DNA of 8,976 nt from a virus: UHGV virus genome UHGV-1999812. One strand, 5' to 3'. Made by a program: the position numbers and the translations under genes. The notes beneath the pieces were generated by a model. That model worked only from the letters and a program-made list of their open reading frames with translations. It did not search any database and was not told the DNA's origin. Shown here piece by piece: positions 1 to 7,965 of the stretch (the stretch's first letter is position 1; each line of letters opens with the position of its first letter).

Positions 1-1011
1 CTTCTTTCTGGTGGCATTGACCCAAAAGAGCACAGAGAGAAACAGCGCCTTAGTGAAGTGATGAAGAGAGAGAACACCTTCAGGCATGTAGCTACGCTCT
101 GGTTTGAACTTAAAAAAGGGCAAGGACTCGCAGAAGATACACTACGCGATATATGGCGTTCGCTGGAGCGTAATGTATTCCCGTCAGTCGGTAACAGGCC
201 AATAGCAGACCTGATAGCAAGCAATTTCATCGAAGCATTAAAACCATTAGCCGCCCAGGGGAAATTAGATACCGTCAGAAGGACAGCACAGCGAATCAAT
301 GAGGTCATGTATTACGCCGTTAATACCGGAATGATTGCCGCGAATCCGGCATCAGAGATAAGCAAGGCATTTAACGCGCCAAGCGTTAAGAACATGCCAG
401 CAATACGCCCTGAAGAACTCCCCGAATTTATGCAGAAGCTGTCAACGGCACGAGTGGAACGACAAACGCGACTGGTTATTGAGTGGCAGTTACTGACAAT
501 TTGCCGACCAGGTGAAGCAGCTGGCGCGCGCTGGTGTGAGATTGATTTTGAGGCGAAGGAATGGCGCATACCAGAGCACAGACTTAAACAACGCAGGGAA
601 CACGTAATACCACTCTCGAAGCAGGCGTTAGCCATTCTGGATGTCATGAAGCCAATAAGCGGGCATCGTGAGTTTATATTTCCACACAACAGCGACCCGC
701 AGCGCCATATGTGCACACAAACAGCAAACGCAGCAATAAAACGCATGGGTTTTGGTCGGCGGCTGGTTGCTCATGGCTTGCGCTCAATAGCAAGTACCGC
801 ACTTAACGAGCAAGGTTTTGACTCTGACGTAATCGAGGCGGCATTGTCACACATAGACAAAAACGAGGTTCGCCGCGCGTACAACCGCTCAACCTATCTC
901 GAGCAGCGACGCCCGTTAATGGCGTGGTGGGGGAATTTTGTAGAGGCTGCTGCCAGCGGGAGCGTAAGCGCCACGGGTGGCTATCGTGGGTTAAAAATGG
1001 TTAACGGTTAA
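1..1011 (+). CDS. Tyrosine recombinase / integrase, P4-IntA type (5'-partial)
   Basis: Frame 1 is open from base 1 (LLSGGIDPKEHREKQRLSEV precedes the ORF-track Met at 58) to TAA 1009-1011. The translation carries catalytic-domain signatures of tyrosine recombinases: Arg in LTICRPGEA, His-x-x-Arg in LVAHGLRSIAST, and HIDKNEVRRAYNRSTY with the C-terminal Tyr. Roughly 70-100 N-terminal residues lie upstream of the window. Confidence 0.9.
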   Translation, partial: LLSGGIDPKEHREKQRLSEVMKRENTFRHVATLWFELKKGQGLAEDTLRDIWRSLERNVFPSVGNRPIADLIASNFIEALKPLAAQGKLDTVRRTAQRINEVMYYAVNTGMIAANPASEISKAFNAPSVKNMPAIRPEELPEFMQKLSTARVERQTRLVIEWQLLTICRPGEAAGARWCEIDFEAKEWRIPEHRLKQRREHVIPLSKQALAILDVMKPISGHREFIFPHNSDPQRHMCTQTANAAIKRMGFGRRLVAHGLRSIASTALNEQGFDSDVIEAALSHIDKNEVRRAYNRSTYLEQRRPLMAWWGNFVEAAASGSVSATGGYRGLKMVNG

Positions 1012-1015
1012 GGGC

Positions 1016-1912
1016 ATGGCAAACAAAAAAATAAACCTTCCTGAGAGGGATTATTACCCGTTAGACAAGGCAGCCAGAAGGCTTGGGTGTGACGTTGATG
1101 ACTTGATTCACTTCATCGCTACAGGGAAGATGTGTTTTTGGTACCGTCATCACATAGACGAGGCTTTGACATTACATAATTATAAAAACGCATTTAATAG
1201 TGTATCAGCATCAGATTATTATTATGAAAATGATGAAGGCGTATTCATCAGAGCAACCGACATATTAAAACTACTTGAATCTTCATATTTTGGTGAAAAA
1301 ATAACAAACAATGAAGACCAACTAACGGAAAAGGTATTTTTTTATTACGATAGTAGTTATTCCGAAACGGATATTTTTATATGCAATTATCAGAAATATA
1401 AACAAAGAAAAATCAGAACGCAGTTACCACATAAAATCAGGGTTGTGGCTTCAGGGCTTTTACAGGTATTTAATACAAGCATTGACATAGAGAACCTATC
1501 AAATGAAATTACAAATTGCTCTGTGCGCCGCATTGTTATAGCAGATAAAGCAGAAGAACCAGAGATAACAATAAACCTATATGGCAAAACAATAAATATT
1601 AGTGACGTTTTCATCTCAAAAGAAGAGATAAAAATAGTAATGAACGGCGGCAGACAACCAGGAGATATGGTAAAGGATTTTTCAGATAAACACGCCTTGT
1701 CGCATTCGCAGAGCAAGAAAACAACCAATCTTCAGGCCAGAGTTATCAAAAGACTAATCACCGCCATAGCCGGAGAAGAAGAGGCGTCAAACCCACGAAG
1801 GGCGCTTGAAAACGGTCACAGCAAGTTAAGCCGCGCACTAACCAAAGCAGGGGTTGATATCGGTGCCACACCAACATGCATAGGTAAGTGGCTTGCAGAC
1901 GTTGACGACTGA
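1016..1912 (+). CDS. Hypothetical protein with N-terminal AlpA/excisionase-like HTH and AT-rich central domain
   Basis: 298-codon ORF starting 4 nt after the integrase stop. The N-terminus YPLDKAARRLGCDVDDLIHFIATGKM fits the HTH pattern of AlpA/Xis-type regulators. The central ~500 bp (about 1190-1680) is far more AT-rich than the rest of the window, rich in Asn/Lys/Ile/Tyr codons. Followed by a strong terminator. No family recognised for the rest. Confidence 0.6.
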   Translation: MANKKINLPERDYYPLDKAARRLGCDVDDLIHFIATGKMCFWYRHHIDEALTLHNYKNAFNSVSASDYYYENDEGVFIRATDILKLLESSYFGEKITNNEDQLTEKVFFYYDSSYSETDIFICNYQKYKQRKIRTQLPHKIRVVASGLLQVFNTSIDIENLSNEITNCSVRRIVIADKAEEPEITINLYGKTINISDVFISKEEIKIVMNGGRQPGDMVKDFSDKHALSHSQSKKTTNLQARVIKRLITAIAGEEEASNPRRALENGHSKLSRALTKAGVDIGATPTCIGKWLADVDD

Positions 1913-1923
1913 CAGACTTCTGA

Positions 1924-1947
1924 ACATATGACCGCCCGTAATATTAC
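1924..1947 (+). terminator. Rho-independent terminator downstream of the 298-aa ORF
   Basis: Perfect palindrome GCCCGTAAT/ATTACGGGC (1924-1941) immediately followed by TTTTTT (1942-1947), 12 nt after the stop at 1912. Confidence 0.6.
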
Positions 1948-2050
1948 GGGCTTTTTTCGTAATATTCCGCAATGCCAGCTTTTCCCGTGTTTGCATATCC
2001 TTGAACAAGTTTAGGCAAGTTAGCGCCTGAAACAAAAGGAACGCAAAAGT

Positions 2051-2254
2051 ATGAACATTACAGAAAAGAAAATCCTTACAAAACGAGAAGTCGCAAATCT
2101 TCTTCGCCTTAGTACAACAAGCATTGACACAATGGTTAAGGCTGGTGAGTTTATTCCTGGCTTTAAGCGTGGATTACGCCGCGTTGGCTGGTTTGAGGAT
2201 GAGGTGAAATCATGGCTTGAGAAGAAAGTAGAGGAGCGTTATCAGCAGGAATAA
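2051..2254 (+). CDS. alpA: AlpA-family phage regulatory protein (excisionase-like HTH)
   Basis: 67 aa; LTKREVANLLRLSTTSIDTMVKAGEFIPGFKRGLRRVGWFEDEVKSWL matches the AlpA/Vis-like wHTH pattern (helix, GxFP-x-basic, W-x-E-x-E-V/I-x-x-W). AAGGA upstream of ATG 2051. Position downstream of an integrase is typical. Confidence 0.85.
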   Translation: MNITEKKILTKREVANLLRLSTTSIDTMVKAGEFIPGFKRGLRRVGWFEDEVKSWLEKKVEERYQQE

Positions 2255-2784
2255 TAAATTCCCATATGTGAAATATAAAAGCCACCAGCGCAGAAAATAA
2301 AACGCCTCACGTTATGCAAAACGGGTTAACCGTCGTGATGCCTTGCCGCATTCAATTAACGGCAGGTAAAAAATACCCGCAATGCAATAACACTACGGGC
2401 CATCAACGGAATATAAGGAGTTAACCGATGTGTATTGTATACAGTCGTGTGTATATTGCCACAGGTAACAGGCATCCGCGCCAAATACCCGCCAGAGAAA
2501 ATCAGTTGATCGCCAGTATCAAAAATGGCTATGATTCCCGCGCACCTCATAAAACGGGTGTCGGGATTGGAACCCCGCTGGAGATAAAGGCGATACAGAC
2601 GCCGAACGCGTCTTTTTTTGTATCGGCGCACACGCACACCTTATCAATGGTGGGCTGTATGGGGCTGACTTCGGTCAGGCTGGTTTCCTTTATCGCCAGT
2701 AGTTCCAACTCCGTGCAGTCCACCGCCAGCGAGATTGGAACCTCCAGCGGTGGGTATATCCCAACGATAAAGGAGGCTGCCATC

Positions 2785-2961
2785 ATGGCTACTACCCCTG
2801 CCCTCGTACATTCTCAAACTGCCTTTATCTGGCGCTTTATCATCTTTGGCGCGTCAGAATCCCAAATCATCCACGTAACCGCCTGGACGGAACGCGAAGC
2901 GCGTAACCGTTGCCCGTCCGGTTGTGTCGCTGTATTCGCCGCCCGTATTCGTCAGGGGTGA
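2785..2961 (+). CDS. Icd-like small protein (host cell division inhibitor Icd family), copy 1
   Basis: AAGGAGG (2770-2776) sits 8 nt before ATG 2785. The 58-aa product MATTPALVHSQTAFIWRFIIFGASESQIIHVTAWTEREARNR... has the F-x-WRF and T-x-x-EAR motifs I associate with Icd-like proteins, and ordinary codon usage. The in-frame ORF extends upstream to ATG 2428 (also with an AAGGAG RBS), but that extension has four ATA and three AGG/AGA codons and looks low-complexity, so I prefer the short start; the true start is uncertain. Confidence 0.55.
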   Translation: MATTPALVHSQTAFIWRFIIFGASESQIIHVTAWTEREARNRCPSGCVAVFAARIRQG

Positions 2962-3258
2962 GTCATGCTTAAAAACATGTTGATCGCCTCTTCTTTCGGG
3001 CTGTATGATGCCGGAGTCGTCCACATGGCGACCGGGTTTGACAGCCTGAATACTACAGCGGACAGCCGCTTACATTCCGATATGCGGTTTTTTTGTGTCC
3101 GTAAGCCTACCCATACCCGCATTATGGCGGGGCGTAACGGGGGAGCCTTTGCGCTCGCTGGTTCCTGTAGTGCCAGTCTGTCAACCCTGTTACGTCTCGC
3201 CACCATGTTTGACAGCGTAGTAGCGAGACTCCTTAATTTCACTACAGGAGCCTTTCAC

Positions 3259-3429
3259 ATGGCTGTATTCGCACGCCCTTACTTTGTCTGGCGCTTTATG
3301 CAGTGCCACCACAGCAACATCGATGTATTCACCGTTACCGCTGCCACTGAGCACGAAGCACGCGCACAACTTCCGCACACCCATCTGATTTTTGTCACCC
3401 TTATTCGTGAGGGGGTGAGTCATGCGTGA
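3259..3429 (+). CDS. Icd-like small protein, tandem paralogue (copy 2)
   Basis: AGGAG (3246-3250) 8 nt before ATG 3259. The product MAVFARPYFVWRFMQCHHSNIDVFTVTAATEHEARAQLPHTHLIFVTLIREGVSHA aligns with copy 1 over FxWRF ... VTA-TE-EAR ... IR-G. The in-frame ORF extends to ATG 2965; start uncertain. Its stop overlaps the next gene's start (GGGGGTGAGTCATGCGTGA). Confidence 0.5.
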   Translation: MAVFARPYFVWRFMQCHHSNIDVFTVTAATEHEARAQLPHTHLIFVTLIREGVSHA

Positions 3430-3736
3430 TGTGTGTAACACCAGAATACTTGAACAACTGGTTACAACCATAAAAACAGCTGACGCACGGGAAGCGAGAG
3501 CGATGTTTGATGATGCTGACTTCTACGCCCGCAAATTGCTTGAAGGGCTGGCTATCACAGGGCGCTTACTTTCTGGCATGAGTGACAGCATTGACCCTGA
3601 CATGGACGAACTGCGCAGCCTGGGCGATTCCATCGCTGTTACGGCTGAACTTGTGGCCGGATTCAGTGAGGTTGTGGAGGTGTACAACTGGCGTTGTCGT
3701 AACGGAGATATCAGTGCTGATTATCGCCATTCGTGA
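3422..3736 (+). CDS. Hypothetical protein (104 aa)
   Basis: ORF whose ATG is embedded in GGGGGTGAGTCATG and overlaps the upstream stop, suggesting translational coupling. Acidic, helical-looking sequence with ordinary codon usage. No family recognised. Confidence 0.55.
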   Translation: MRDVCNTRILEQLVTTIKTADAREARAMFDDADFYARKLLEGLAITGRLLSGMSDSIDPDMDELRSLGDSIAVTAELVAGFSEVVEVYNWRCRNGDISADYRHS

Positions 3737-3809
3737 TAAGGCAACGACAGGCACCGCTAACCGCATTTATGCAGCAACGGCGTAACTGACCAGAACAAAG
3801 GATAAAAAA

Positions 3810-4109
3810 ATGAACATGAAAAAAACTGGCTTAACTGCCAGCGGCAAGCCTCGCCCTGAATTTAAGCGCGGTGATATTTACCGCGACCAGTACGGCGGCA
3901 CGGTAATGATTAAGGGCGTGGCGGGGCGGTGCGTCACCTACCGCCGTAAAGGCTACGAATATGACTGCGTGATGCCTGTTTATCAGTTTTCCCGTGATTT
4001 TTCTCTGGTGCAGGCGGTACCGCGTAACGTGCCCACCAGCAACGTAAAGGCACTGGCAAAAATACAGAAGATGAAAAAGATGATTAACGCATTCAGGGGC
4101 AAGAAATGA
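3810..4109 (+). CDS. Hypothetical small basic protein (99 aa)
   Basis: AAGGA 6 nt before ATG 3810. Its stop TGA 4107-4109 overlaps ATG 4106 of the helicase gene (ATGA coupling). Lys/Arg-rich. No family recognised. Confidence 0.6.
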   Translation: MNMKKTGLTASGKPRPEFKRGDIYRDQYGGTVMIKGVAGRCVTYRRKGYEYDCVMPVYQFSRDFSLVQAVPRNVPTSNVKALAKIQKMKKMINAFRGKK

Positions 4110-5503
4110 AAAGCGCACCGAACTTAAAAAAACAGCCTTACGACAAAATGACCGAGGTCATTATTTTTGCGGGTAGTGATGCCTGGGCACACGCGAAGCA
4201 GTGGCAGGAGCAGGAGGGCCGACTTGCTGGCGATAATGTGCCACCTGTATGGCTTGGGGAGCAGCAACTGGCAGAACTGGCAGACACGAAAATCATTGAC
4301 GAGGGGCGCTATTGCGTCCGGCTGTACAAAGCAGGCCATATCAGACCATCAAATATTAATGCCATCGCGCAAAAACTGGCAGCGGCAGGCGTACAGGATG
4401 CGAATTATTACCCCGATGGGATGCACAGCCAGAAGCGGGAGAACTGGCGCGAATATCTGGAACGGGAGCGCGGGGAAAAGCAGGAAGAAAAAGGCCACCA
4501 GCGCAAAACAAAGCTACCGATGAGCGTTGGTTCTGCCGGATACGATACACAACTTGATTACGTGGTAAAGGGGATTATTCCGGCAGTATCGCTGTGCAGC
4601 ATATACGGGGCGAGCGGTTCCTATAAATCGTTCCTTGCGGGTTCGTGGGCGTGTCACGTTTCCACGGGCCGCCAGTGGGGAGGCCGCAGGGTGGCGCATG
4701 GCGCTGTTCTCTATGTGGTTGGTGAAGGCGGTATCGGCGTTCCGCGTCGTGTAAAAGCCTGGGAGGTTGTGCACGGTGAGCAGGTGAAAAATCTGTATCT
4801 GGTAAACCGCCCCATCTTTCCGGCTGCCCCGCTTGATGTTGATGAAATGGTTATCGCTGCCCGCCAGGTGGAACGGGAAACGGGTAAACCTGTACGCATG
4901 ATTATTCTGGATACGCTGGCGCGTTGCTTTGGTGGGAATGATGAAAATGATTCCCGTGATATGGGGGCATTTATCCGTGGGTGTGACGAGCTTAAACGGC
5001 GCACAGGGGCCACGGTGCTGGTGGTTCACCATTCCGGCAAGGATGAGACGAAAGGCGCGCGCGGTTCCAGTGCATTTCGTGCTTCGCTGGATGCTGAATA
5101 CCGGATACGCAGGGAGGACGCAGGAAGCGAAGCGCTGGTTATCTCATGTACCAAAATGAAGGACGCGGAGGAACTCAAAGAAGCCGCATATGACTTACGC
5201 GTGGTGGAGCTTTTTACCGACGCTGACGGGGAGTTAATTACGTCGCTGGTGGTGGTGGATAAGCCGCGGCATCCCGTTGAACCTGAGCGCATCGAGGAGG
5301 CAGGGAACAAGACGGAAAACCATACCGCGCTATGGGGGTGCATACGTTCACGCACACAGAACGGCGACAAGTGCACGATCCCGCTGTTACGTGATGACAT
5401 GAAACGGCTTGGGTATGACGTGAAAAACATGCGGCGATGGTTAGCAAAACTGGAGAAAGACGACGTTATCTATATCGACGGTGATGATGTAGGCCCACTG
5501 TAA
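4106..5503 (+). CDS. RepA/DnaB-like P-loop replicative helicase (RecA-fold ATPase) with N-terminal domain of unknown function
   Basis: 465 aa. Walker A-like SIYGASGSYKSFLA, Walker B-like VRMIILDTLARCFGG (hhhhD), and VLVVHHSGKDETKGARGSSAF resembling the sensor/arginine-finger region of RepA-type helicases. Followed immediately by an iteron cluster. Confidence 0.85.
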   Translation: MKSAPNLKKQPYDKMTEVIIFAGSDAWAHAKQWQEQEGRLAGDNVPPVWLGEQQLAELADTKIIDEGRYCVRLYKAGHIRPSNINAIAQKLAAAGVQDANYYPDGMHSQKRENWREYLERERGEKQEEKGHQRKTKLPMSVGSAGYDTQLDYVVKGIIPAVSLCSIYGASGSYKSFLAGSWACHVSTGRQWGGRRVAHGAVLYVVGEGGIGVPRRVKAWEVVHGEQVKNLYLVNRPIFPAAPLDVDEMVIAARQVERETGKPVRMIILDTLARCFGGNDENDSRDMGAFIRGCDELKRRTGATVLVVHHSGKDETKGARGSSAFRASLDAEYRIRREDAGSEALVISCTKMKDAEELKEAAYDLRVVELFTDADGELITSLVVVDKPRHPVEPERIEEAGNKTENHTALWGCIRSRTQNGDKCTIPLLRDDMKRLGYDVKNMRRWLAKLEKDDVIYIDGDDVGPL

Positions 5504-5703
5504 AAAAGTGAGTAGAAAAGTGAGTAATGGTGAGATTTTTACAAAATATTAACACGATTACTCACTTTCTCACCTGTATATAGGCAAAAAAGTGAGTAGT
5601 AAAAAATCACATATAAAACACGCACATAGAAAACCCGAAAATCACAGGTGAGACGAAGTGAGCGATTCCAAAAAGTGAGTAAAAAAGTGAGTAGTGGTGA
5701 GTA
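5504..5703. repeat. Iteron-like direct repeats (GTGAGTA core), putative replication origin
   Basis: At least six direct copies of (A)AAAGTGAGTA(G) at 5504-5514, 5516-5526, 5589-5600, 5670-5681, 5682-5693 and 5697-5703; degenerate GGTGAGA at 5529-5535 and 5647-5653; one inverted copy TTACTCACTTT at 5558-5568. AT-rich tracts flank it (5535-5556, 5747-5777). No long ORF with a ribosome-binding site. Confidence 0.6.
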
Positions 5704-5942
5704 AACAGCAAAAAACACAGAGCAGAGCAGCACGAAAACACAGAAAATCACTTTATTTTTATTTAAGTGTTTTGCTCATGAACGAAGGGCCACAACACGG
5801 CAGAAAGACACGCGAAAGCCCCCTGGCTGATAAGTGCATTCATGAGCACAGCAGCAACAAACTTTACCACGCTGACAGAGCGGGAGATTGCAGAAGCGGA
5901 ACAGGTAACAACCATCAACGTTAAAACCGGAGAGGTGGAATC

Positions 5943-6353
5943 ATGACAGCGCAGATAGCAGCTTACGGGCGACTGATTGACGACCCGCAGACAAAACAGA
6001 CCAGTAAGGGCACACCGATGACGCTGGCACGTATGGCGGTATCGCTGCCATGCAGTCAGGCACAGGACGGACAGGCGACGTTATGGCTATCAGTCCTGGC
6101 ATTTTGTAAGCAGGCCGACCAACTGGCAGGACATGAGAAAGGCAACGTAATCAGCGTATCCGGTGTGATGCAGGTCAGTCAGTGGACCGGACAGAACGGG
6201 GAAACGCGGCAGGGTTATCAGGTCATTGCAGACAGCGTAATCAGTGCGAAAACGGCGCGACCAGGTGGCAACAGACGCAGGACCACAGGCACACAGGGTA
6301 ATCAGCCACCAGCGGGAGGCGATGACCCTTACGGTGACAATATTCCGTTCTGA
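5943..6353 (+). CDS. ssb: Single-stranded DNA-binding protein (SSB family)
   Basis: 136 aa. The N-terminal two-thirds align by eye with E. coli SSB (WLSVLAFCKQADQLAGHEKGNVISVSGVMQVSQWTGQNGETRQGYQVIADSV vs [52 protein letters not shown]). Gly/Gln-rich linker and acidic tail DDPYGDNIPF ending in the hallmark IPF. GGAGAGGTGG RBS before ATG 5943. Confidence 0.85.
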   Translation: MTAQIAAYGRLIDDPQTKQTSKGTPMTLARMAVSLPCSQAQDGQATLWLSVLAFCKQADQLAGHEKGNVISVSGVMQVSQWTGQNGETRQGYQVIADSVISAKTARPGGNRRRTTGTQGNQPPAGGDDPYGDNIPF

Positions 6354-6363
6354 GGGGTGAACG

Positions 6364-6633
6364 ATGGTACATGACAGCATAGCGGAAGAACTGGAGGCGA
6401 AGGGCTTTTACCGGAGAGCGGCGGCGCGATGGGCTGAAGTGATGATGCTGGTGGAGACTGACAGGGAACGCGAACGGGTGGCAATGCGCAGGGCAGAGTG
6501 TTACGGGAAGACGCAGAGGCCACCGGAGCAACCGGATGATTTAGGCGGCCTGAAACGGGCGATTAAACGCACTGAAAAAGAAATGGGGATAGACGGGAGA
6601 GGCAAAAAAATCTGGCGTAGCTACCAGAAGTAA
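6364..6633 (+). CDS. PerC-family transcriptional activator
   Basis: 89 aa. N-terminal DSIAEELEAKGFYRRAAARWAEVMMLVETDRERERVAMRRAECYGK matches the conserved PerC core (E-x-K-G-x-YRRAA-x-RW-x-EV) as I recall it. ATG is 10 nt after the ssb stop. Confidence 0.75.
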   Translation: MVHDSIAEELEAKGFYRRAAARWAEVMMLVETDRERERVAMRRAECYGKTQRPPEQPDDLGGLKRAIKRTEKEMGIDGRGKKIWRSYQK

Positions 6634-6746
6634 GCACAGAGCCGGAACAGTCGGTTAGCCTTTCTGATTGTGTGCGTGTATATCGTTTTATTGCGACGTT
6701 AAATTAAACTGGTAGGACCAGATACACCAACGCAAGAGGCTACCGG

Positions 6747-7154: not shown

Positions 7155-7289
7155 CCACAGATACCAGCAGCAACCGTTATATTTGCGCCACTATCGCAAA
7201 AAATCCCCTTTCAGGGCATCACGGACGCCACAAAACACCAAAACGCATCAGAGAGCGAATCAGGCGCTTTAATGATGATTTGTTTTTTT

Positions 7290-7358
7290 GTGAAAGAAGG
7301 TGAAAGAAGGTGATTTTTGTGAAATTAAGCGAAATCACGTGAAATCAGGTGAAATAAT
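7290..7358. repeat. Seven 10-bp-phased GTGAAA direct repeats (protein-binding array or curved DNA)
   Basis: gTGAAAgaag (7290-7299), gTGAAAgaag (7300-7309), gTGAtttttg, tGAAAttaag, cGAAAtcac, gtGAAAtcag, gtGAAAtaat: the GAAA cores fall at 7292, 7302, (7312), 7321, 7331, 7341, 7351, one helical turn apart. Contains the palindrome TCACGTGA (7335-7342). Lies between the Mor-like gene and the RNA array. Confidence 0.6.
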
Positions 7359-7395
7359 GATACCCGTTCATCTGGTGCTACCAGACGAAACAGAC

Positions 7396-7424: not shown

Positions 7425-7436
7425 TTTGCCTGGCTG

Positions 7437-7517
7437 TATGGTGTACTCTTAATCGGTAAAGCGGCATAAACCCTAACGGGCCATATGTTTATGTGGGTTC
7501 GACCCCCGCCACCAACA
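7437..7517 (+). ncRNA. tRNA-like structured RNA, unit 1 of 3
   Basis: T-arm GTGGG (7493-7497) / loop TTCGACC / CCCGC (7505-7509), with a U·G at the second pair; acceptor-like 3' strand CACCAAC (7510-7516) then unpaired A; D-arm-like TCTT / AATCGGTA / AAGC. The 5' acceptor strand is degenerate (5 of 7 pairs). No encoded CCA. Confidence 0.4.
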
Positions 7518-7540: not shown

Positions 7541-7631
7541 GCTGGTGTACTCTTAATCGGTAAAGCGGCACCCGCTTGTATAGCTTCCAGAAAGCGGGAT
7601 GTTTATGTGGGTTCGACCCCCACCACCAGCA
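7541..7631 (+). ncRNA. tRNA-like structured RNA, unit 2 of 3
   Basis: Acceptor-like helix GCTGGTG (7541-7547) with CACCAGC (7624-7630) and unpaired A7631; T-arm GTGGG (7607-7611) / TTCGACC / CCCAC (7619-7623); central 7-bp hairpin CCCGCTT (7571-7577) / AAGCGGG (7592-7598) with a 14-nt loop in the anticodon-arm position. Confidence 0.45.
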
Positions 7632-7654: not shown

Positions 7655-7736
7655 GCTGGTGTACGCTCAACGGGTAGAGTCGGTGCCAGCCTGTACAGGC
7701 TGATCATGTATGCGGGTTCGACCCCCGCCACCAGCA
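7655..7736 (+). ncRNA. tRNA-like structured RNA, unit 3 of 3
   Basis: Acceptor GCTGGTG (7655-7661) / CACCAGC (7729-7735) with unpaired A7736; D-arm GCTC (7665-7668) / AACGGGTA / GAGT (7677-7680); central hairpin CAGCC (7687-7691) / TGTACA / GGCTG (7698-7702); T-arm GCGGG (7712-7716) / TTCGACC / CCCGC (7724-7728). Non-canonical for a tRNA: 3-nt linker after the acceptor strand, 6-nt central loop, no CCA. Confidence 0.45.
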
Positions 7737-7965
7737 CGCCAAAAGCACAATTGCGCCATTTCTAAACCCACTTTAAAGCCACATAAAAACGGCTTTCGTA
7801 TCCCGTTTTATTGAGCACTCACGAAAAATGTGTACATACGCGTGTACATATACAAATTAACCCAACCCAAAGAACCGCATAATAAAAGCAATTAACGCAC
7901 ATACTAAACATTCAGATTCAATATTGAGTAACTCGTAACACTAATTCTTACTTTTCAGCCTTCAC

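Follow-up and report, generated by a model that had tools for sequence, protein, structure and literature searches.

A candidate three-module regulator encoded upstream of alpA in an Escherichia coli phage satellite and its unannotated family

The virus genome UHGV-1999812, a stretch of 8,976 nucleotides (nt) referred to below as the window, contains an Escherichia coli island of about 8 kb that is followed by the core gene dinD. Between the P4-type integrase gene (int) of this island and alpA lies an open reading frame (ORF) at positions 1016–1912 on the + strand, which starts with ATG, encodes 298 amino acids and is called X here. In Gram-negative phage-inducible chromosomal islands (PICIs), excision and replication are set off by the activator AlpA, which the helper phage specifically induces. 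X and its relatives are taken here to be a new family of putative modular regulators, unannotated to date, which sit at the alpA switch in phage satellites of Gram-negative bacteria. We put at roughly 50% the probability that X is a three-module sensor-regulator that gates alpA, resembling in its working, but unrelated to, the Stl repressor of Gram-positive PICIs, the Staphylococcus aureus pathogenicity islands (SaPIs). This reading draws on the domain anatomy of the protein, the exchange of its middle part as a cassette, the conserved order of X, an operator-like palindrome pair and alpA, and the covariation of the palindromes with the C-terminus of X.

X begins only 4 nt past the stop codon of int (TAA at 1009–1011) and is therefore probably translationally coupled to it; an AAGGG Shine-Dalgarno sequence lies inside the end of int, and the int–X gap is 4–6 nt, or the genes overlap, in E. 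coli, Salmonella and Hafnia. The original prediction, a reading of this DNA made without database searches, described the ORF as a mosaic with an AT-rich middle and a C-terminus of typical composition, and the composition bears this out. In 200-nt segments, the GC content falls from 0.52–0.55 (801–1100) to 0.28–0.35 (1201–1700) and returns to 0.51 (1701–1900); by domain, it is 0.44 in the N-terminus (amino acids 1–45; 0.51 at third codon positions, GC3), 0.33 in the middle (amino acids 46–230; GC3 0.28) and 0.50 in the C-terminus (last 68 codons; GC3 0.47), the middle thus standing against 0.49 for the whole window. Asparagine, lysine, isoleucine, tyrosine and phenylalanine together make up 36% of the middle, compared with 21% of the C-terminus.

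Structure prediction and structural searching gave a match for the first of these domains and none for the second. Residues 13–55 are predicted to adopt the winged-helix fold of the MerR superfamily (a strand, two helices and a beta-hairpin wing) and resemble Xis, BldC, RdfS and MerR, which is the sole significant structural similarity of X; a Foldseek search of X against BFVD returned nothing under E = 0.02. The middle yielded a low-confidence model (predicted local distance difference test, pLDDT, about 50) for which no fold match was found. For the five-helix C-terminal domain, an HTH of the XRE/lambda-repressor type is a candidate fold. The AlpA/Xis-like helix-turn-helix (HTH) proposed earlier for the N-terminus is accordingly retained as a predicted fold, although no sequence profile of Pfam, NCBIfam or PHROGs detects it, and the description of X as an AlpA-like HTH fused to an unknown domain has to be replaced, as the real AlpA is a separate ORF downstream (Table 1). 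The predicted "recognition" helix is acidic (VDDLIHF), and its D29 is nearly invariant across the family.

The boundary of the middle is sharp when the window is compared with a sister island, L002: nucleotide identity is 97–100% outside and about 45% within window positions ~1140–1712. The two X proteins are equal in length, nearly identical in residues 1–45, identical from residue 232 onward and ~35% identical in amino acid sequence between these points. As read from this alignment, residues ~42–232 of X alone are exchanged in E. coli, as a cassette of ~570 bp, between islands that are otherwise 97–100% identical, and the earlier suggestion of a recombined gene is borne out. For the window and L034, a closer allele, the ratio of nonsynonymous to synonymous substitution rates is 0.23 overall, 0.07 in the N-terminus, 0.37 in the middle and 0.09 in the C-terminus, which indicates that X is a functional gene whose ends are under constraint and whose middle evolves fast. 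The accompanying idea of a recent acquisition, drawn from the AT-richness, is not upheld, because low GC content of the middle is a family trait and hence no mark of recent foreign import: among 13 homologues examined, from at least seven genera, the middle is the lowest-GC domain of the three in 11, and in all 13 it lies 0.05–0.18 below the 3-kb flanks.

An exhaustive profile search of 1.84 billion representative proteins identified 185 relatives of X at E ≤ 1e-3, 42 of them at E ≤ 1e-10. Most of the 185 are 240–320 amino acids long. The source names of family members all read "hypothetical protein". They typically align with X in two stretches (~1–45 and ~190–294) flanking a middle that cannot be aligned, and the N-terminus is the part matched most often. 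The family is characterized by an N-terminal motif (LP.R.YY.L..AA..L.C.V.DL.H), a motif that closes the middle domain (D.(F/Y)I...E......GG) and a C-terminal motif (S.KT.N.QA.FIK.LI...YG...A.NPR....SEI..DF...G...PSGKTV..WL), the last of which is also written as S.KT.N.QA.(F/V)IK.LI...G...A.NPR....S.L......G...P.G..V..WL. A word-indexed search of 5.8 billion proteins returned 11 clusters only, all from E. coli or Salmonella, and a homologue search with the C-terminal profile added five fragments only. A degenerate DNA pattern for the family detected true members in genome contigs, none in viral contigs and one in metagenome contigs.

The whole X protein has no match in Pfam, NCBIfam or PHROGs at E ≤ 0.1, and no defence-protein model of PADLOC-DB 2.0 matched it. 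Pfam found no domain at E ≤ 0.01 in 61 relatives and no match in C-terminal fragments of the family, and a profile scan of 29 family N-termini gave a single match, to MerR_1 at E = 0.2. Sequence searches of the PDB with whole, C-terminal and N-terminal profiles of X produced spurious matches only (ribosomal L3, designed "Pizza" proteins and dUTPase), and a tblastn search of X against 50,697 phage records produced none. These profile libraries (Pfam, PADLOC, NCBIfam and PHROGs) thus reveal no enzymatic or defence domain in X, in agreement with the earlier remark that nothing in the sequence identifies its activity. Two genes from int–alpA intervals elsewhere were considered as counterparts of X and rejected: YfjH, encoded between intA and alpA of CP4-57, is unrelated and lies on the opposite strand, and EcCIMP1_002, from a characterised PICI, is a different small protein.

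In all X-bearing islands with an assignable alpA-like gene, X occupies the position of a regulator at the boundary between int and the early operon. An AlpA/HTH_17 gene lies 95–165 bp directly downstream of X whether int is adjacent or not, an order seen in the three E. coli forms, in Salmonella, Hafnia, Budvicia and an Orbaceae genome, and in Pasteurellaceae, where five genera show it, among them Rodentibacter, Glaesserella and Spirabiliibacterium; metagenomic islands of the Pasteurellaceae type have it as well. The Muribacter locus yielded no AlpA-like ORF downstream of X but has the palindrome pair described below. The gene order is int, X, alpA in Hafnia, Budvicia and the enterotoxigenic E. 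coli of pigs (pig-ETEC), and int, 6 nt, X, alpA, Rha/AntA, Ash, ..., Toprim + DUF927, Mor in Salmonella. In the Pasteurellaceae satellites, X lies ~4 kb from int, past a P2-type capsid gene and a ParE/HTH toxin–antitoxin pair, and the next gene is the HTH_17 gene that heads the Ash...DUF927 early operon. Since X stands beside alpA even where int is distant, it is fixed in the regulatory region of the satellite and is not slot-filling cargo. X had been taken for variable cargo beside the integrase; its conserved partner is instead the downstream alpA, and homologues fill the same int–X–alpA slot in Salmonella, Hafnia, Budvicia and a third E. coli lineage. Among 5426 complete E. coli genomes, eight contain the window form of X, and the window allele of alpA with its upstream DNA is found in exactly the same eight.

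Comparison of the int–alpA interval across related islands reveals X and the palindromes in some of them and, in capsid-forming PICIs (cf-PICIs), a 365-bp spacer that contains neither a gene nor a palindrome pair. Conservation of position with uniform composition in all related islands, an outcome considered at the outset, is therefore seen in one part only: the position is kept wherever X occurs, cf-PICIs lack X, and the composition is not uniform. Several further features of these loci were observed. The Pasteurellaceae-type islands L014–L017 and L035–L039 each carry two AlpA/HTH_17 genes, one near int and before the P2-type capsid gene, the other preceded by X, and the ParE-type toxin–antitoxin pair lies immediately 5′ of X. 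The pig-ETEC locus L051 (3989–4867; E. coli cq9 and 13 other pig/ETEC genomes) encodes a third, distant form of X of 292 amino acids, 23% identical to that of the window, in an int–X–alpA slot at ileX beside a frameshifted integrase, and the replication module of this island is Toprim + DUF927.

Two operator-like palindromes, O1 and O2, separate X from alpA (Table 1), and their motif has no third occurrence anywhere in the window. RNA folding of 1913–1975 gives −14.2 kcal/mol (z = −2.4), and O1 is predicted to double as the intrinsic terminator of the int–X transcript. The strong terminator originally assigned to X is thus present as a hairpin with a T6 run, but it is one member of a palindrome pair that is conserved: E. 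coli O1 forms a terminator because the palindrome is extended by G+C and a T-run, and the other genera lack this extension. Every X-bearing island carries two palindrome copies of 10–14 bp, spaced 20–21 bp from start to start, just past the X stop codon, with three copies in the Orbaceae genome. The pairs read CGTAATATTACG / CGTAATATTCCG in the window, GTTCGTAATATTGCA / TGCAATATTACGAAC in Salmonella, CGCAATATTGCG / CGTAATATTTCA in Hafnia and CGTAATATTACG / TGTAATATTACA in Budvicia; two copies each of TGGAAATTTCCA, TTTGGAATATTCC and GGGGAATATTC are found in the Rodentibacter-type islands, in Glaesserella and Muribacter, and in Spirabiliibacterium, respectively, and pig-ETEC E. coli (L051) has two copies of GGACATGTC(A/C), 20 bp apart. 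In five lineages, the second palindrome lies 75–97 nt before the alpA ATG.

The association of these pairs with X was recovered by a blind scan of all fetched loci and the window, well over half a megabase, for palindromes of 10 nt, one mismatched pair being tolerated, present as two copies that differ at no more than one position and lie 17–26 bp apart. All but three of the distinct pairs start 2–30 bp past the stop codon of X or, in Budvicia, overlap it; the three off-site pairs are one in Salmonella bapA (in all seven Salmonella loci), one in the Muribacter locus and one in the Orbaceae locus. The looser pairs of L010, L033 and L044 were spotted by eye. No such pair precedes alpA in islands without X, namely the cf-PICIs and CP4-57, or the first alpA of the Pasteurellaceae islands. 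Three Pectobacterium matches (L020, L030 and L031), which are weak orphan relatives situated outside islands and without palindromes, were not used.

In a comparison of six specificities, the palindrome type follows the C-terminal subtype of X, and not its N-terminal winged helix or AlpA. GTAATATTAC occurs with C-terminal ends of the form ...P(A/S)(T/S)G.(A/T)V..W, GGAATATTCC with ...PSGKTVD(R/K)WIN, GGAAATTTCC with ...ITPETLRNWLN, GGGGAATATTCCCC with ...TGRTLDAWIKD and GGACATGTCC with ...PSQKTMRRWF, and the sixth specificity pairs a different repeat structure with a non-homologous C-terminus. Between the Pasteurellaceae-type islands L015 and L035, identity exceeds 90% in the N-terminal helices and in the AlpA-like proteins encoded downstream, and the X middle differs; L035 encodes a non-homologous C-terminal domain and carries a wholly different repeat structure in place of the TGGAAATTTCCA pair of L015. 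The swapped block extends from just past the N-terminal domain to just past the repeats, and identity of at least 90% returns in the promoter-proximal DNA and alpA. The pig-ETEC X keeps the N-terminal motif and has a divergent C-terminus, with the palindrome GGACATGTCC. Because the palindromes covary with the C-terminus and the N-terminal helix is acidic, operator binding is provisionally assigned to the C-terminal domain.

These observations bear on an alternative in which the N-terminal winged helix binds DNA, X assists Int as an excisionase-like or architectural factor or works as a MerR-type regulator, the C-terminus oligomerises or binds a partner, and the covariation reflects linkage. 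The only significant structural similarity of X is to Xis, BldC, RdfS or MerR and falls in this domain, X is probably coupled translationally to int in Enterobacterales, the N-terminus is the part matched most often across the 185 relatives, and the swapped blocks are contiguous, all of which would suit such a role. We nevertheless consider it unlikely, since the near-identical N-terminal helices of L015 and L035 stand before unrelated repeats, L051 retains the N-terminal motif yet has the GGACATGTCC operator, a recognition helix reading V-D-D-L-I-H-F is unusual for base contacts, X is not beside int in Pasteurellaceae, and the island already contains a dedicated AlpA/Xis-type protein. X shares with the AlpA/Vis/excisionase group (Xis, RdfS, BldC; PF05930, PF12728, TIGR01764) the predicted winged-helix fold of its N-terminus. 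It differs in having no match to these profiles, whereas the neighbouring ORF matches, in its length of 298 amino acids with two further domains, compared with single-domain proteins of 50–90 amino acids, and in an acidic "recognition" helix and an N-terminus that does not track the operator sequence.

According to the reading that we favour, int and X would be transcribed in the integrated state, with the transcript ending at O1. The C-terminal domain of X would bind O1 and O2, probably as one dimer per site, and from these sites X would control transcription into alpA, most likely by repressing the alpA promoter and read-through. The middle would serve as the input module and most likely reads a helper-phage protein, the binding of which would release or switch X and thereby couple induction of the satellite to a particular helper. 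The Xis-like N-terminal winged helix may contact Int, AlpA or DNA.

Several points weigh against this proposal. The evidence that the middle senses a helper, its most likely input, consists of hypervariability and the analogy with Stl, and the structural model of the middle is poor. A search between O2 and alpA revealed no sigma-70-like promoter, and the geometry therefore indicates neither repression nor activation. The covariation of palindrome and C-terminus could be plain linkage within one recombined block, because the C-terminal coding region adjoins the palindromes. The palindromes could also be sites for AlpA, a known positive autoregulator, although the occurrence of nearly identical AlpA proteins next to different repeats argues against this. 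Finally, a protein repressor may be unnecessary because the island already has RNA immunity of the P4/P1 type; given the C4/CI-type RNAs, X may add a layer of control and not be the sole switch.

The analogy invoked above is with the master repressors Stl and Rpr of SaPIs. In SaPIs, the variable part of the repressor binds a specific helper-phage protein and thereby sets helper specificity (PMC6092414). X resembles these regulators in that its gene separates the int side of the island from the xis/replication side, in combining a putative DNA-binding part with a part that differs sharply between similar islands, and in having a conserved position, a hypervariable sequence and operators before an activating gene, the function of X being predicted. 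X differs from them in several respects: no relationship of sequence or fold is detectable; X, int and alpA all lie on the + strand, so that the divergent transcription of the SaPI arrangement is absent; the operators are downstream of the X gene instead of in a shared divergent intergenic region; X consists of three modules, of which the N- and C-terminal ones are conserved; and it is proposed to act upstream of the activator AlpA, not directly on the whole island. A second likeness is to the imm regions of temperate phages such as the lambdoid ones, in which a repressor is exchanged together with its cognate operators, as in Pasteurellaceae the X middle, C-terminus and repeats are replaced as one block between highly similar DNA. 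In contrast to imm regions, to which X is not related, E. coli X has an extra internal breakpoint, such that the middle alone is exchanged and the proposed DNA-binding end and the operators are kept; the operators are proposed to control a neighbouring activator gene instead of a lytic promoter pair; and the island also carries C4/CI-type RNA immunity.

An anti-phage role was likewise considered, in which X is a single-gene abortive infection or exclusion protein whose middle is a phage-sensing surface under an arms race, whose ends are an unrecognised effector or titrate a phage component, and whose neighbouring palindromes belong to AlpA. Satellites commonly have defence genes near int; a hypervariable middle between conserved flanks and the allelic replacement of cassettes resemble the sensor domains of defence proteins; X is rare and patchy, as the count among complete E. 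coli genomes illustrates; and the islands closest by replication module lack it. On the other hand, PADLOC, Pfam and NCBIfam reveal no defence or effector domain in X, and none was found in the 61 relatives; nuclease, TIR, SIR2, transmembrane and NTPase features are lacking, the ends being small helical or winged-helix domains. Cargo would not be expected to pair strictly with an alpA-like gene and with operators that track the C-terminus across three orders, and in Pasteurellaceae cargo-like toxin–antitoxin genes adjoin X while X itself stays with the early operon. A defence function is thus improbable, and of the roles originally thought plausible for X, the regulatory or sensor role is retained and that in exclusion is not supported by any PADLOC model. 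It is more improbable still that X is a packaging-redirection (Rpp) or small-terminase-like protein, with the winged helix on pac/cos-like palindromes and the variable domain on the helper terminase or portal: this would explain packaging without capsid or terminase genes, the window island lacks packaging genes, and pac sites often lie in or beside terS, but X heads the early/regulatory region in every island, including Pasteurellaceae satellites with their own capsid gene elsewhere, its predicted structure lacks a TerS-like oligomerisation helix bundle, and it has no PHROG terminase match.

Table 1. Positions of X, its domains and associated features in the window
Feature	Position	Strand	Description
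P4-type tyrosine integrase, 3′ two-thirds	58–1011	+	PF00589, PF22022; gene runs off the left window end; full 421-amino-acid gene annotated in sister islands
X, N-terminal domain	1016–1150	+	Amino acids 1–45; predicted winged helix of the Xis/MerR/AlpA class
X, middle domain	1151–1711	+	Amino acids 46–232; AT-rich, beta-rich, hypervariable cassette; proposed sensor/specificity module
X, C-terminal domain	1712–1912	+	Amino acids 233–298; conserved, five helices; proposed DNA-binding domain for the downstream palindromes
O1, operator-like palindrome CGTAATATTACG	1937–1948		Within hairpin GCCCGTAATATTACGGGC (1934–1951), followed by T6
O2, operator-like palindrome CGTAATATTCCG	1958–1969		21 bp from O1 (two helical turns); 82 nt upstream of the alpA ATG
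alpA	2051–2254	+	67 amino acids; PF05930 (23 bits, cut-off 21), PF12728, phrog_66; the island's real AlpA/excisionase-family regulator
RNA immunity region	2542–3207	+	isrK (2542–2618) and C4/CI-type antisense RNAs (2643–2730, 3120–3207); Rfam 63.8, 77.6 and 72.3 bits

The island carries the P4-type integrase, X, alpA, isrK with two C4/CI-type antisense RNAs, DUF4222, a RepA-type helicase, SSB, PerC, Mor and tRNA-like repeats. It has int, alpA, the Icd-like/C4 RNA region, DUF4222, the helicase, SSB and PerC in common with cf-PICIs and other Gram-negative PICIs (EcCIEDL933-like) and with P4-like elements, and window positions 2802–6646 (DUF4222, RepA helicase, SSB and PerC) are 82–86% identical in nucleotide sequence to cf-PICIs. 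Capsid and terminase modules are present in cf-PICIs, whereas the window island is devoid of capsid, portal and terminase genes and ends with a Mor-family activator gene and the tRNA-like repeats; it looks like a stripped-down relative of the cf-PICIs. The matches to isrK and both C4 RNAs exceed the Rfam gathering scores, and the island probably uses RNA immunity of the P4/P1 type. This region coincides with an "ash family" pseudogene of RefSeq and with "Icd-like" ORFs in relatives, and some of the Ash/Icd-like ORF calls there may be spurious.

Near-identical copies of the island (L002, L034, L001 and L051, compared with window positions 7744–7913) are situated at different chromosomal sites: at the tRNA-Ile gene ileX, inside the mdtP coding sequence, beside dinD (the window) and, near nfeF, beside a second integrase. 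Both L002 and L034 have the 24-nt repeat AAAAAGGCATACAAAAAGGCATAC on either side of the island; the window, with a different right junction, does not contain it. The integrase appears to use several targets. Three tandem tRNA-like units are found at the right end of the island (7436–7517, 7541–7631 and 7655–7736), and homology to the other copies ends at 7744, just past the third. In the sensitive mode of Rfam, two of the units pass the tRNA gathering score (29 bits), at 33.9 and 35.0 bits, and one, at 19.8 bits, does not; none was reported by the default Rfam run or by ARAGORN, and RefSeq labels two such units "tRNA-OTHER" and "tRNA-Tyr" in sister islands. Between mor and these units, positions 7285–7362 contain GTGAAA-containing repeats phased at 10 bp (GTGAAAGAAG GTGAAAGAAG GTGA...), which look like iterons, and so a possible origin, or like phased binding sites for proteins of the Xis or Int type.

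A broader and more tentative proposal, which we think has a minority chance of being correct, is that the X family comprises previously unrecognised master sensor-regulators of PICI-like and P4-like satellites in Enterobacterales, Pasteurellales and Orbales, in which the C-terminus would hold the alpA switch through tandem operators and the exchangeable middle would read a specific helper protein. If this is true, the question of how helper infection turns on alpA would be answered for these elements, and the swapping of a single cassette would re-program helper specificity. As the candidate regulator gene, its two operator sites and its target all lie inside 1.3 kb, the question of helper sensing is directly testable, and the natural allelic cassettes provide ready material for specificity swaps. 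The family, with 185 representatives, a clear modular architecture and no Pfam entry, would allow better annotation of satellites and is a possible marker for such islands; and if the middle reads helper proteins, allele typing would predict phage–island mobilisation in E. coli, Salmonella and pathogens of the Pasteurellaceae.

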